Below the pieces are notes generated by a model, which did no database searches, was not told where the DNA came from, and worked only from the letters and a program-made list of their open reading frames with translations. DNA of 64,000 bases, from the NCBI GenBank assembly GCA_963758525.1, contig CAVWVQ010000003.1, positions 1,792,001-1,856,000 on the forward strand. Direction: 5' to 3'. Made by a program: the position numbers and the translations under genes. This DNA comes from an uncultured Phycisphaerales bacterium. GTDB lineage: Bacteria > Planctomycetota > Phycisphaerae > Tepidisphaerales > Tepidisphaeraceae. Positions within the stretch are counted from its first letter, which is position 1, and each line of letters starts with the position of its first letter. Positions 58,445 through 64,000 of the stretch are shown here, in pieces.

Positions 58445-59567
58445 TCAACTCCGGGCCAGCGCGTCGCTCTGTTTGACGAACGCATCCCCCTGCCAATCGG
58501 CGTCCTTCGTCACCAGCCCGGCTTTCGCCGCGGCCAGGGCCTTGGATTCGGCCTGACGATGAACCAGATCGGCGTGGGTTGTGAAATACTGCAGGCTGCG
58601 GCCTTTGAAGTCGGCGATCGTTTCGAAGTTATGCTTTGCCATGAAGGAAAGCACTTCGTCTTTCATCCGCCCAACACAACCGTAGCCCATCTTCATGACG
58701 CCGGTGCAGACTTGCACGGTGTCGGCGCCGAGCAGAATGAACTGGGCGGCGTCTTTGCCGGACTCGATCCCGCCGATGCCGCTGAGGCTTCGGCCGGGGA
58801 ACTTGTCGCGGATCATTTCGGCGCATTCTTTGACCATCCGCAGCGCGATCGGTCGGACCGCGGTGCATGAGTAACCGCCGGGGACGGTGTATCCTTCGAC
58901 GGTCGGCTCCGGGCGAAGCGTCTCCAGGTCGACGCCCATCACGCACAGGATGGTGTTGATCGCGCTGACTCCCTGACAGCCGGCCGACAGCGCCGCTTCA
59001 GCGCCCGCGGCGATGCTCGTCACGTTCGGCGTGAGCTTCGCCCAGACGGGGACTTTGGCAGCGCTCATCACCCAGCCGCACACCTCGTGCATGATGCTCA
59101 CGTCCTGGCCCATCGCCGCGCCCATCTTGCGCTCGGGCAGGCCGTGCGGACAGGAAAAATTCAGCTCGAACCCGGCGACGCCGGTCTCCTGGACGCGCTC
59201 GATGATCTCGATCCACCGGTCCTTGTTGTACTCCTCCATCACTGAGGCGATCACCGCGCCGTTCGGATATTTGTCCTTGAGCATCTTCAGCTCGTCGAGC
59301 CAGACGGAGAAGGGCCGGTCGGAAATCAGTTCGATGTTCTGCCAGCCGATGATTTCCTTGCTCTTTTCCGTCCGGAGGCGCGGCGTAGCGCGGTGCGACG
59401 TTGACGACCTTCGACGCGTCGAGGCTGATCGTCTTGATGATGACCGCGCCCCACCCTTCGTCGAAAGCCTTGCCGCAGACGTTGGCATTGGTGCCGGGTG
59501 GGCCCGAGCCGATGACGAAGGGGTTTGGAAGTTTGATACCGTCGACGATGGTGGCGAGTGTGGGCAT
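58445..59567 (-). CDS. preA: Dihydropyrimidine dehydrogenase PreA/PYD1-like subunit; frameshift near 59383
   Basis: NPFVIGSGPPGTN, GWQNIELISDR, ELNFSCPHG, AINT, TVQVCTGVM. Confidence 0.9.
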
Positions 59568-59628
59568 ATCAGCACATCTCAAGTGAACAATTCCGCGGTT
59601 CGAGAGCGGTGCTCGCCGCCGTGAAGAA

Positions 59629-59745
59629 GAACACGAATGAGCACGAATTTACACGAATCCGCACGAATAAATGCATTTGACTTTTTTTATTCAGTATTGA
59701 ATTTCTTTCGTGTCCATTCGTGTTTATTCGTGCTCATTCGTGTTC
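59629..59745. repeat. Gene-less 10-bp-periodic palindrome (CACGAAT family)
   Basis: GAACACGAATGAGCACGAATTTACACGAATCCGCACGAAT ... TTCGTGTCCATTCGTGTTTATTCGTGCTCATTCGTGTTC. Confidence 0.85.
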
Positions 59746-61354: not shown

Positions 61355-61422
61355 GTAGGGCGGGATTCATCCCGCCGCTCTTTCGCATCATGGCAACCGC
61401 GGCGGGATGAATCCCGCCCTAC
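61355..61422. repeat. GTAG-type REP inverted pair
   Basis: Same arms as 29450-29517 with a different spacer. Confidence 0.85.
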
Positions 61423-61428
61423 GGACCC

Positions 61429-62811
61429 TCACATCGCCGCGCATCGGCCTCTCTTGAGGAATTTCCCGTCGCCGCGTTGGCCCATGTATCGGTCATTCTC
61501 CACTACGACCTTTCCTCGCGACAGAACGGTCGTTGGTTTGCCCTTGATCTTCCAGCCTTCAAAAAGGCTGTAGTCGCAATTCATGTGGTGCGACTTCGCG
61601 CTGATTGTCCGTTCGATCGCCGGATCAAAAATCACGATGTCAGCATCGGAGCCGACGGCAATCGTTCCCTTCCTGGGAAACATGCCGAACATCTTCGCGC
61701 TGGCGGTGGAGCAAAGGTCGACCCACTTGTTCAGGCTGAACCCGCGCTGCATTACGCCGCCGTGGTAGACCATCGACAGGCGATCTTCCACGCCCGGGCC
61801 GCCGTTGGGAATCTTCGTGAAGTCCCCCCGCCCAAGCTCTTTCTGTCCCTTGAAAAAAAAGGGACAGTGATCCGTGCTCACCTCCTGCAGATAGCCCAGC
61901 TTCAGCCCCTTCCACAGCGGCTCGATGTTTTCCTTCCCCACCAGCGGCGGGGTGAAAACGTATTTGGCCCCTTCAAAGTCAGGCTTGTCGTAATAGCTGT
62001 CGTCGAGAAAGAGATACTGCGTGCAGGTCTCGCCGAACGCGGGGTTCCCGGCATCGCGGGAGCGCTGCAGTTCCATCATGGCCGCCTCACAGGAGACGTG
62101 AACGATGAAGACCGGCGCTCTGGCGACTTCCGCGACGCGCACAGCGCGGGCGACGCCGTCCGCCTGCATGACGGGCGGGCGCAACTGCGCGTGATACTTC
62201 GGCTCAACCTTCCCCTGCGCCAGCAAATTCTTCACCAGCTCGGAAATGGCGATGCCATTTTCGGCGTGCACCAGCGTGAGCCCGCCGGCCTCGCCGGCCG
62301 ACTGCATGACGCGGAACATGGTCTGATCGTCCACCATGAACACGTTCGGGTAGGCGAGAAACAGCTTGAAAGTGGGAACGCCGCTGTCGATCACCTGCGC
62401 AAACTCGCTGGCATGCCGCGCCTCGTATTCCGTCACCGCAAGGTGAAAGCCGTAATCGATCGCGCACTTCCCCTCAGCCTTGGCGTGCCAGTCGTCGAGC
62501 GTCTGTCTGAAGGTTTTGCCGTGGTATTGGATGGCGAAGTCAATGATGGAGGTCGTGCCTCCGAATGCCGCCGCGCGCGTGCCGGACTCGAAATCGTCGC
62601 TGCTCACGGTGCCGCCGAACGGCAGTTCCATATGGACATGCGGGTCGATCGCCCCGGGAATGACCAGCTTGCCGGCGGCGTCGATCACTTTGTCGGCTTT
62701 CATTGGCAGCGCGGCGCCGATCGTCTTGATTACTTCACCATCGATGAAAACATCGGCGACATAGTCGTCGCTGGCGGTGATGACTCGGCCGTTTTTGATC
62801 AGGGTCGTCAT
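61429..62811 (-). CDS. hydA: Dihydropyrimidinase
   Basis: PGAIDPHVHME, FKLFLAY, VHAENG, STDHCPF, IPNGGPGVEDR. Confidence 0.95.
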   Translation of the reverse strand: MTTLIKNGRVITASDDYVADVFIDGEVIKTIGAALPMKADKVIDAAGKLVIPGAIDPHVHMELPFGGTVSSDDFESGTRAAAFGGTTSIIDFAIQYHGKTFRQTLDDWHAKAEGKCAIDYGFHLAVTEYEARHASEFAQVIDSGVPTFKLFLAYPNVFMVDDQTMFRVMQSAGEAGGLTLVHAENGIAISELVKNLLAQGKVEPKYHAQLRPPVMQADGVARAVRVAEVARAPVFIVHVSCEAAMMELQRSRDAGNPAFGETCTQYLFLDDSYYDKPDFEGAKYVFTPPLVGKENIEPLWKGLKLGYLQEVSTDHCPFFFKGQKELGRGDFTKIPNGGPGVEDRLSMVYHGGVMQRGFSLNKWVDLCSTASAKMFGMFPRKGTIAVGSDADIVIFDPAIERTISAKSHHMNCDYSLFEGWKIKGKPTTVLSRGKVVVENDRYMGQRGDGKFLKRGRCAAM

Positions 62812-62879
62812 AAGTGTGTCTCTAGGGCGTTTTTGATCAGGGTCGTCATAAATAATGTCTCGGGAAGAGGAACACGAAT

Positions 62880-63545
62880 GAGCACGAAATCGCACGAATC
62901 TTCACGAATGGATTAGTGACTGTTCTTTCTTCTTCGTGAAGATTCGTGCAAATTGGTGCTCATTCGTGTTCCTCTTCATTTGTCTTTGAAGACGCTCACC
63001 GATTGCTATCGAACATCTCCATCAGAGGACGAAGCGATGCCACTCCAGTCGGCCCGCGTCGCCAAAGTTAATCAAAACGCCGACCCGCAGGCCGGTCGCG
63101 CGAGCACGAATTCGCACGAATCTTCACGAATGGATTAGTGACTGTTCTTTCTTCTTCGTGAAGATTCGTGCAAATTGGTGCTCATTCGTGTTCCTCTTCA
63201 TTTGTCTTTGAAGACGCTCACCAATTGCTATCGAACATCTCCATCAGAGGACGAAGCGATGCCACTCCAGTCGGCCCGCGTCGCCAAAGTTAATCAAAAC
63301 GCCGACCCGCAGGCCGGTCGCGCGAGCACGAATTCGCACGAATCTTCACGAATGGATTAGTGACTGTTCTTTCTTCTTCGTGAAGATTCGTGCAAATTGG
63401 TGCTCATTCGTGTTCCTCTTCATTTGTCTTTGAAGACGCTCACCGATTGCTATCGAACATTTCCATCAGAGGACGAAGCGATGCCACTCCAGTCGGCCCG
63501 CGTCGCCAAAGCTAATCAAAACGCCGACCCGCAGGCCGGTCGCGC
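62880..63545. repeat. Three tandem copies of a 222-bp unit (GxxExxY 3' end plus palindrome)
   Basis: Unit starts at 62881, 63103 and 63325; only a few substitutions between copies. Confidence 0.92.
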
Positions 63546-63841
63546 AGGTAGTTAAGCACTTGGGCTTCGTCGGCATCCGTCGTTCGCTCCGCTGCTTTCA
63601 GCTCGACAAGCACCGCACTGCCACACACGAAATCAGCAACGAACATCTTCTTGAGAATTCGATCCTTATACTTGATCCGCAAGGGCACTTGCGGCAAGAA
63701 CGAAATGCCTCGGTCGGCCAACTCGTATTCCATCGCCTCTTGATACACGCTCTCCAGGAACCCGGCGCCGAGTTCGTTGTACACTTCCATCGCAGCACCG
63801 ACGATCTGATACACTTCTTCCTTTAAAAGCAGCTCGCTCAT
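63466..63841 (-). CDS. GxxExxY family protein (PD-(D/E)XK-like); 2-nt deletion near 63543
   Basis: GAAMEVYNELGAGFLESVYQEA, ADF..VELKA, AQVLNYL; restoring 2 nt gives RATGLRVGVLISFG...RFVL*. Confidence 0.9.
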
Positions 63842-63941
63842 AGAAATTGTCCTTTGCACAGCCAAGTCTTCATGTTTTGCACTGAACCCCGCTTTTTGTT
63901 CGTGAAGATTCGTGAAAATTCGTGCTCATTCGTGTTCCTCT

Positions 63942-64000
63942 TCACGGAGCCAAGGCCACGGTTAATCCCGCATCGATCGCCTCGACCAGTTCATCCACCT
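63942..64000 (-). CDS. 3' end of an upstream gene (possibly class III aminotransferase)
   Basis: Reads VDELVEAIDAGLTVALAP*; identity guessed only from operon context. Confidence 0.35.
   Translation of the reverse strand, partial: VDELVEAIDAGLTVALAP

Follow-up and report, generated by a model that had tools for sequence, protein, structure and literature searches.

A GxxExxY gene between heptamer-array arms in a pyrimidine operon of a Phycisphaerales bacterium: apparently a broken copy of an undescribed mobile family

Introduction

Why should a gene without any metabolic role lie inside an operon for pyrimidine degradation, and why should it be enclosed by palindromic repeats? The window analysed here, a stretch of 64,000 nt from an uncultured Phycisphaerales bacterium, raises this question with a gene of the GxxExxY family (PF13366, TIGR04256) placed between arrays of CACGAA(T) heptamers. 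A first-pass annotation, made from the letters of the window, had proposed a selfish cassette whose protein recognises its own repeats. The feature is real, and it is apparently a broken local copy of an undescribed mobile family. The reading that we consider somewhat probable is that of a decayed and partly amplified cassette, in which the protein likely binds its own heptamers on duplex DNA and likely cuts at these sites or close by; repair by the host would then carry copies of the cassette into further operon junctions. Such a cassette would explain the position of PF13366 genes in operons where they have no metabolic role, as well as a large class of intergenic palindromes. Since the copy in the window is broken, its value is that of an entry point to the family.

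The cassette in the window and its decay

The operon neighbours of the cassette are a dihydropyrimidinase, an NCS1 permease and a PreA-like gene, in agreement with the setting first described; the upstream ORF is, judging from its sequence, presumably aminotransferase-like. The start of the left arm at the stop codon of this ORF and the four units of 10-bp spacing were also confirmed (Table 1). Over the whole genome, pairs of CACGAA at 10 bp number 134, with about 1.2 expected per spacing, which places the repeat far above chance. The layout initially given, namely the gene followed by one direct and one inverted copy of the arm, is correct for the direct copy and for the full inverted arm, which is 92% complementary to the left arm over 48 nt; it lacked the frameshift in the gene and a threefold 222-nt tandem (62880-63545), whose copies each join the 3' end of the gene to one direct and one inverted arm and differ at 2-3 positions per pair. 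The locus thus holds four direct and three inverted arms, two of the latter truncated, and one unit of the direct arm copies reads CACCAAT. The 30-nt duplication next to the right arm is possibly a repair scar. In the same operon, a gene-less palindrome with units like those of the cassette arms, also missing from the first-pass annotation, is found without the MITE shell described below.

Table 1. Features of the cassette and its surroundings in the window
Feature	Positions	Strand	Remarks
Upstream host gene, 3' end	63942-64000	-	460-aa ORF, extends past the window
Left arm	63893-63944	-	opens within the stop codon (TGA) of the preceding aminotransferase-like ORF
Left arm core	63899-63934	-	four CACGAA(T) units, 10-bp spacing
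GxxExxY gene (PF13366/TIGR04256)	63466-63841	-	codons 1-100 in frame; frameshift near 63542-63545
Tandem copy 1, 222 nt	63324-63545	-	gene 3' end, 43-nt spacer, direct arm, 24-nt loop, truncated inverted arm
Tandem copy 1, arms	direct 63371-63422; truncated inverted 63324-63352	-	
Tandem copy 2, 222 nt	63102-63323	-	direct arm 63149-63200; truncated inverted arm 63102-63130
Tandem copy 3, 222 nt	62880-63101	-	direct arm 62927-62978
Full right (inverted) arm	62864-62908	+	45-bp stem with the adjacent direct arm
30-nt direct duplication of dihydropyrimidinase start, 38-nt period	62784-62851	-	adjoins the right arm; possibly a repair scar
Dihydropyrimidinase, downstream host gene	61429-62811	-	TIGR02033 above cut-off
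Gene-less CACGAAT palindrome	59632-59742	.	same operon, between NCS1 permease and preA

The reading frame of the gene is intact through codon 100 and shifts at the tandem border, and the attached 3' piece carries the change Asn111Ser at a position that is Asn in 93 of 93 aligned relatives. About four genes are frameshifted in 47.5 kb of conserved coding DNA (five sites, two of them adjacent, including the GxxExxY gene and preA), and for this reason an assembly error is possible; real decay is favoured because of the place of the frameshift at the tandem border and the additional Asn111Ser. None of the contigs from one DNA sequencing run (a 0.06 share) bridged the cassette. The frameshift of the preA-like gene (58445-59570, minus strand) is located near its 5' end in the assembly. 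The triplication is plausible as biology, since the genome has other tandem arrays in which a palindrome is repeated together with its flank. Duplicated arms, extra hairpins or runs of 7-12 units were also seen in the cassettes L060, L099, L102, L119, L217, L223 and L226, which makes local amplification a trait of the family. The broken gene retains E30, D70, E80, K82, Q94 and Y98, and its K7, V10 and N22 fit the CACGAAT arm type.

The GxxExxY protein

The identity of the gene, first recognised by eye, is supported by both curated models: the protein scores 110.8 bits (cut-off 22; E 6e-32) for PF13366 (PDDEXK_3) and 109.7 bits (cut-off 35; E 1e-31) for TIGR04256. PF13366 is its sole Pfam match, and no DDE, HUH or serine transposase domain was detected in it. 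Among 93 aligned proteins, the predicted catalytic residues E30, D70 and K82 are invariant and E80 is present in at least 90%. A structure model of an intact orthologue (pLDDT 94.8) has top fold matches that are all of the PD-(D/E)XK type, in the RecB/Cas4/lambda-exonuclease group. The best one is SSO0001 (PDB 4IC1), which we take to be a Cas4 protein, with a Foldseek E of 1.2e-4 and a VIA Z of 8.0 (the limit stated by this tool for a common arrangement) at an rmsd of 4.1 over 100 residues and 15-17% identity; a sequence search of solved structures returned nothing below E 0.69. The model therefore predicts a PD-(D/E)XK nuclease fold, and nuclease activity is predicted with it. In the accessible part of a 2012 survey, PDDEXK_3 is entered as 'Unknown' (PMC3424549).

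The D-ExK and QxxxY residues are shared with RecB/Cas4/lambda-exonuclease nucleases, from which the GxxExxY protein differs in its low identity and in a length of only 125 residues. A Cas4 context is equally lacking: no cas family occurs among the 32 neighbour proteins scanned, and no conserved cysteines, such as those of an Fe-S cluster, are found in the 93 aligned proteins.

Architecture and distribution of the family

PF13366 was found in 121 of 141 family genomes (341 matches), with 1-8 divergent genes per genome, and in 65 of 151 genomes sampled across the phylum. The architecture was studied in 101 genes, mainly the best-scoring matches listed and those at the junction of the window, of which 100 had enough flanking sequence. 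An inverted-repeat score of at least 14 across the gene was obtained for 93 of these 100, as compared with 20/300 for swapped flanks and 2/300 for random ORFs, and 87 genes have at least two units on both sides (0/300 in the controls). The family unit can be written CRCNRAD. Its spacing is mostly 8-11 bp (range 8-12), with 8 bp as the commonest (148 times, followed by 9 bp, 119; 10 bp, 75; 11 bp, 12; and 12 bp, 7); phasing at one helical turn, which had been suggested from the 10-bp period, does not hold as a family property and 10 bp is the spacing of this clade. The median distance of the cassettes is 13 nt from the preceding same-strand stop and 16 nt to the start that follows, and an upstream stop lies within 30 nt on the same strand in 66/87 cassettes versus 24/87 on the other strand.

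A cross-phylum scan of a genome collection gave 543 matches, of which the best 80 were taken and 76 scored (a few of them repeat the family loci). Within these best 80 of 543, two arms were present in 66/76 and a CRCGAAD unit in 67/76, over 17 named phyla, with a spacing of 9-10 bp in 273/289 steps; the motif persists at 52-63% protein identity. The arms are not universal, given that 97 of 158 held-out genes have two arms of the family pattern and 61 do not. PF13366 matches were also observed inside open frames of 555-2397 codons (G179:C7:20123-20473, G260:C15:27424-27762, G236:C138:63-401 and G237:C34:243857-244207), which are possible in-frame insertions or fusions.

The proposal that the protein is tied to its own repeat is supported at the level of the tree. 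The arm motif requires 33 changes on the protein tree versus at least 64 in 300 shuffles, and its last three bases 10 versus at least 37. The insertion site also tracks the tree, more weakly (23 changes versus at least 37 shuffled), which indicates that much of the pattern is inheritance in place. On the other hand, the clade of the window has 11 different downstream genes among 24 family loci, and certain junctions are hot, such as the motA-type (14/101 genes) and the MoxR-DUF58 junction (12/101), the latter with cassettes of four protein clades and four arm types. Triplets of CACGAAT are found in 21/24 genomes with a gene of this clade versus 33/117 without, a comparison in which related genomes are not independent and many are incomplete. 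The three clade genomes lacking such triplets have Arg or Ser at position 22 and arms ending in G, and at least 10 CACGAAT matches are found in 20/117 genomes with no detected clade gene.

Covariation of residues and repeat bases

In 154 cassettes, the best protein column for each variable base of the heptamer was residue 22 for base 7, residue 10 for base 5, residue 7 for base 4 and residue 105 for base 2. These pairs are a candidate code, and in the structure model helix 1 (residues 7, 10 and 22) and the loop at 105 form the predicted reading surface. The rules were fixed beforehand and then applied to 170 new loci, of which 12 were too short and 158 were scored, 99 of them with a consensus. 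Thr10 went with G at base 5 in 45/45 cases and Val/Ala10 with A in 21/21; the rule for Ser10 failed (6 G, 16 A). Asn22 went with T at base 7 in 17/19, and Arg/Lys22 with G in only 31/56. Residue 7 predicted correctly in 43/53 and residue 105 in 59/80. Out of 116 columns in the held-out loci alone, residues 10, 22, 7 and 105 ranked 1, 3, 3 and 1 (tied) for bases 5, 7, 4 and 2, respectively. Counted as independent pairs under the pre-fixed rules, the held-out results are not significant (p 0.06-0.5).

The combined set of 253 proteins, analysed on a tree without the tested columns, gave for residue 10 and base 5 about 5.6 same-way versus 0 opposite independent pairs (p 0.03), and for residue 105 and base 2 12 versus 1 (p 0.003). 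Residue 22 gave p 0.06 and residue 7 p 0.5, and for all four residues pairs in the opposite direction were almost absent. It is important to note that these p values include the discovery set and that the class of residue 10 was revised after the held-out result. One junction is shared by the cassettes L429, with Asn22 and arms ending in T, and L431, with Arg22 and arms ending in G; L430 is a counter-example to the rules. Particular residues and repeat bases thus change together, and for this reason the protein likely recognises its own repeats. As evidence of direct recognition the covariation is good but unproven, and it is strongest for residue 10.

The same junction in relatives

A close dihydropyrimidinase is encoded in 33 of 141 family genomes; 31 loci were read, and in 21 the aminotransferase lies upstream. 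Of these 21 junctions, 7 contain a full cassette, 9 a palindrome without the gene (nine unit types by eye) and 5 no heptamers. The latter comprise three with nothing, one with a different REP-like repeat and one with a small ORF. Hence a repeat-armed cassette with patchy distribution and gene-less relatives, as originally proposed, is what was found, and the gene is not stably syntenic in this operon. The closest relative, with host proteins 87% and 94% identical, has an empty junction, and full, gene-less and empty states are interleaved on the host tree. A single old insertion with many losses nevertheless also fits: all 7 genes at the junction fall in one protein clade, and in the AU test neither the monophyly of these genes (p-AU 0.30) nor a host-like grouping (p 0.20) was rejected. 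An old insertion with repeated loss and replacement fits the history of the junction as well as repeated arrival. Tree tests at this junction singled out neither a donor nor an order of insertion. For full cassettes, neither a target duplication nor a clean empty site in a close relative was found, the empty relatives being too diverged between the genes; the search at locus L132 recovered one flank only per relative.

PD-(D/E)XK homing endonucleases exist, and a free-standing enzyme of this kind could cut the empty junction in a sister allele and be copied by homologous recombination of the flanks, the arms being secondary. The repeated occupation of the same junctions, the single clade at this one, the coexistence of full, decayed and empty states, and a weak fold match of the model to the I-Bth0305I domain are all consistent with it. 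Against it, one clade is present at 11 unrelated junctions, which makes a junction-specific target unlikely, and the protein co-varies with its own arms. Taken together, homing of this type is very unlikely, and a cassette directed by its own heptamers is preferred.

Palindromes and composites in the source genome

The source genome has four PF13366 genes, each with its own arm type: CACGAAT, CGCGAAG, CGCAGAT and CACAAAA. It also contains 98 paired CRCNRAD palindromes that form five families (27, 24, 24, 12 and 7 copies) plus 4 others, and four of the five families match one GxxExxY gene each. No cognate gene for the family of 8-bp-spaced CACGAAG (24 paired copies, for example G000:C3:344660-344777) was found in the 91%-complete assembly. 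The positions of the gene-less palindromes rest on gene calls from a crude hexamer model (78% coding), and distances are rough.

Some gene-less copies appear to be internal deletions, as indicated by gene remnants in the loops. In the CGCAGAT family these score 10-17 bits, and a reversed control gave none of at least 3 bits. Between pyrB and pyrC, the source genome has a full cassette, whereas the palindromes of the two genomes of its genus lack the gene, the one in G002 apart from a short C-terminal remnant that is weak (4 bits). No gene remnants were found in the CACGAAT loops.

The genome-wide copies of CACGAAT, which had been put forward as a means to follow the element, are not proof of spread driven by GxxExxY. 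Most dispersed CACGAAT palindromes sit within a shell of about 205 bp with 10-bp terminal inverted repeats. An arm-free MITE of 102-103 bp has the CTA(A/T)ATGACC-type ends common to this shell (G000:C3:874846-874948 and at least 11 other places). One shelled unit is missing at the orthologous site in both same-genus genomes, which indicates a recent insertion, possibly by another enzyme. At G000:C3:1736280-1736490 (L131), the shell appears to supply the upstream stop codon, shortening the C-terminus in comparison with G001.

Two other families are part of longer units. Palindromes of the CGCGAAG type belong to a near-identical composite of about 270 bp (G000:C3:229669-229908, 2087675-2087905 and 1362939-1363200; C4:65386-65650; and others), and those of the CACAAAA type are embedded in a repeated element of about 740 bp (G000:C1:163517-164260 and about 15 related places). 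About a dozen insertions of the CGCGAAG composite lie right after Y-N-G-Y (the heptamer on the reverse strand), often in the right arms of other families; they have a duplication of at most 1 bp and form tandem arrays of 4-5 copies. These insertions at heptamer-like positions are a candidate cut-site marker and a hint for the mechanism proposed below, although another enzyme may have moved them. No autonomous element with the ends of the MITE shell or of the CGCGAAG composite was found in the 91%-complete assembly.

Shell and composites are what one would expect if GxxExxY were a passenger, with arms and gene either carried along by foreign transposases, as in MITE hitch-hiking, or just inherited jointly, and with the covariation due to shared descent; the lack of significance in the strict held-out tests points the same way. 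Nevertheless, the shell ends are not evident outside the arms in full cassettes read by eye, and the arms stand at the short median distances from stop and start given above. For each variable base, a single residue stands out from more than 100 columns when all loci are combined, and its changes coincide with those of the base on a tree from which the tested columns had been removed; the motif is kept across the 17 phyla of the cross-phylum scan (best 80 of 543) at the protein identities reported. We therefore regard the passenger explanation as unlikely, and a GxxExxY protein acting on its own arms as the better account.

DNA or RNA as the target

The arms can fold as a stem (z -15 and z -5 in two tests), and the first-pass annotation had proposed that they could pair in the mRNA and loop out the insert. 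Selection for such a hairpin found no support: on the transcribed strand, the mismatches between arms are 97 of the G·U type versus 101 of the A·C type in 117 full cassettes, and 43 versus 47 in 46 gene-less palindromes. This lack of a G·U bias fits recognition of duplex DNA; judging from these sequences, DNA rather than RNA would be the target.

A broader possibility is a domesticated regulator at the RNA level, in which hairpins kept at certain operon junctions would set the balance of expression between the genes on either side, with GxxExxY as the protein that binds the RNA stem or processes it. The stable stems, the preference for same-strand upstream stops and the filling of this junction in 16 of 21 relatives, against a background in the source genome of 50 palindromes for about 3,820 gene pairs of the same direction, all speak for it. 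In the opposite sense, G·U mismatches are not in excess on the strand of the mRNA, no heptamer array is present at this junction in the closest relative, a single junction can have different arm types from unrelated clades, and of the 98 palindromes of the source genome gene-less ones lie also between divergent (30) and convergent (18) genes. Such a regulator seems improbable, and the binding of heptamer DNA remains the reading that we follow.

Proposed mechanism

The observed basis for a mobile cassette is its architecture, the patchy orthologous junctions, the many sites per clade and several clades per site, the gene-less copies and the covariation. In the mechanism that we propose, the protein would be made from the transcript or promoter of the host operon, and it would bind heptamer arrays in double-stranded DNA and cut at or near them. 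Host repair would then copy the cassette into new operon junctions, with tandem copies and internal deletions as by-products. Junctions with a pre-existing array would often be the ones entered, which would account for the hot spots, for nested arms such as those of L008 and for the turnover of arm types. To our knowledge, a lone PD-(D/E)XK domain has no known strand-transfer activity.

A more ambitious claim, possible in our opinion although short of an even chance, is that GxxExxY drives a new class of selfish DNA in many phyla: a nuclease of 125 residues that would read a degenerate heptamer by a simple code, with arrays that serve both as ends and as landing sites, and that could be retargeted by single substitutions. 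If the code is true, these proteins would be among the smallest sequence-reading nucleases, and the cassette would be a mobile element with no recognised transposase. The residue-base pairs make 'function unknown' directly testable.

Comparison with known systems

Insertion sequences and their MITE derivatives share with the cassette a gene between inverted ends and the existence of gene-less forms, some with remnants of internal deletion; they differ in that GxxExxY has no recognised transposase domain and occurs as a few divergent genes per genome instead of identical copies. Free-standing PD-(D/E)XK homing endonucleases are likewise small, intergenic, nuclease-only genes with full, decayed and empty alleles. 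Unlike them, the cassette has repeat arms of its own, co-varies with these and is not bound to one target gene.

The system that the cassette works most like is the REPtron, i.e., REP/REPIN sequences with their RAYT. According to the accessible parts of two reports, both have one enzyme gene per repeat flavour and many gene-less inverted doublets (with the caveat of the MITE shell here), clusters in which flanking DNA is repeated in tandem as well, insertion of repeats into older ones, and a repeat type that tracks the enzyme tree (PMC3116915, PMC3733652). As described in those same parts, RAYT belongs to the HUH tyrosine transposases (IS200/IS605 group), REPs are hairpins tagged with GTAG/CGTC, and RAYTs are not self-mobile (PMC3116915, PMC3733652). 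GxxExxY is instead a PD-(D/E)XK protein, its repeats are CRCNRAD arrays of 3-4 heptamers, and its gene has an arm on either side, exactly enclosing it, and moves from site to site and across phyla. The cassette lacks the defining features of REPtrons as well as those of insertion sequences, Cas4 and site-fixed homing endonucleases.

The TAACTGA repeats of Beggiatoaceae are, in the accessible part of their description, also intergenic heptamer arrays inside operons, and their author suggested, as a speculation, that what moves could be a protein able to bind the repeat (PMC4679880). They are direct repeats of another sequence, and that part of the text contains neither 'GxxExxY' nor 'nuclease' (PMC4679880). 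No description of a GxxExxY repeat-armed element was found in the literature, in a search conducted mostly at the level of abstracts in an accessible collection.

The window itself contains a GTAG-ended, REP-like inverted doublet at 61355-61422, between the dihydropyrimidinase and the NCS1 permease, with 24-nt arms that are 100% complementary. A similar, unrelated repeat fills the aminotransferase junction of L022.
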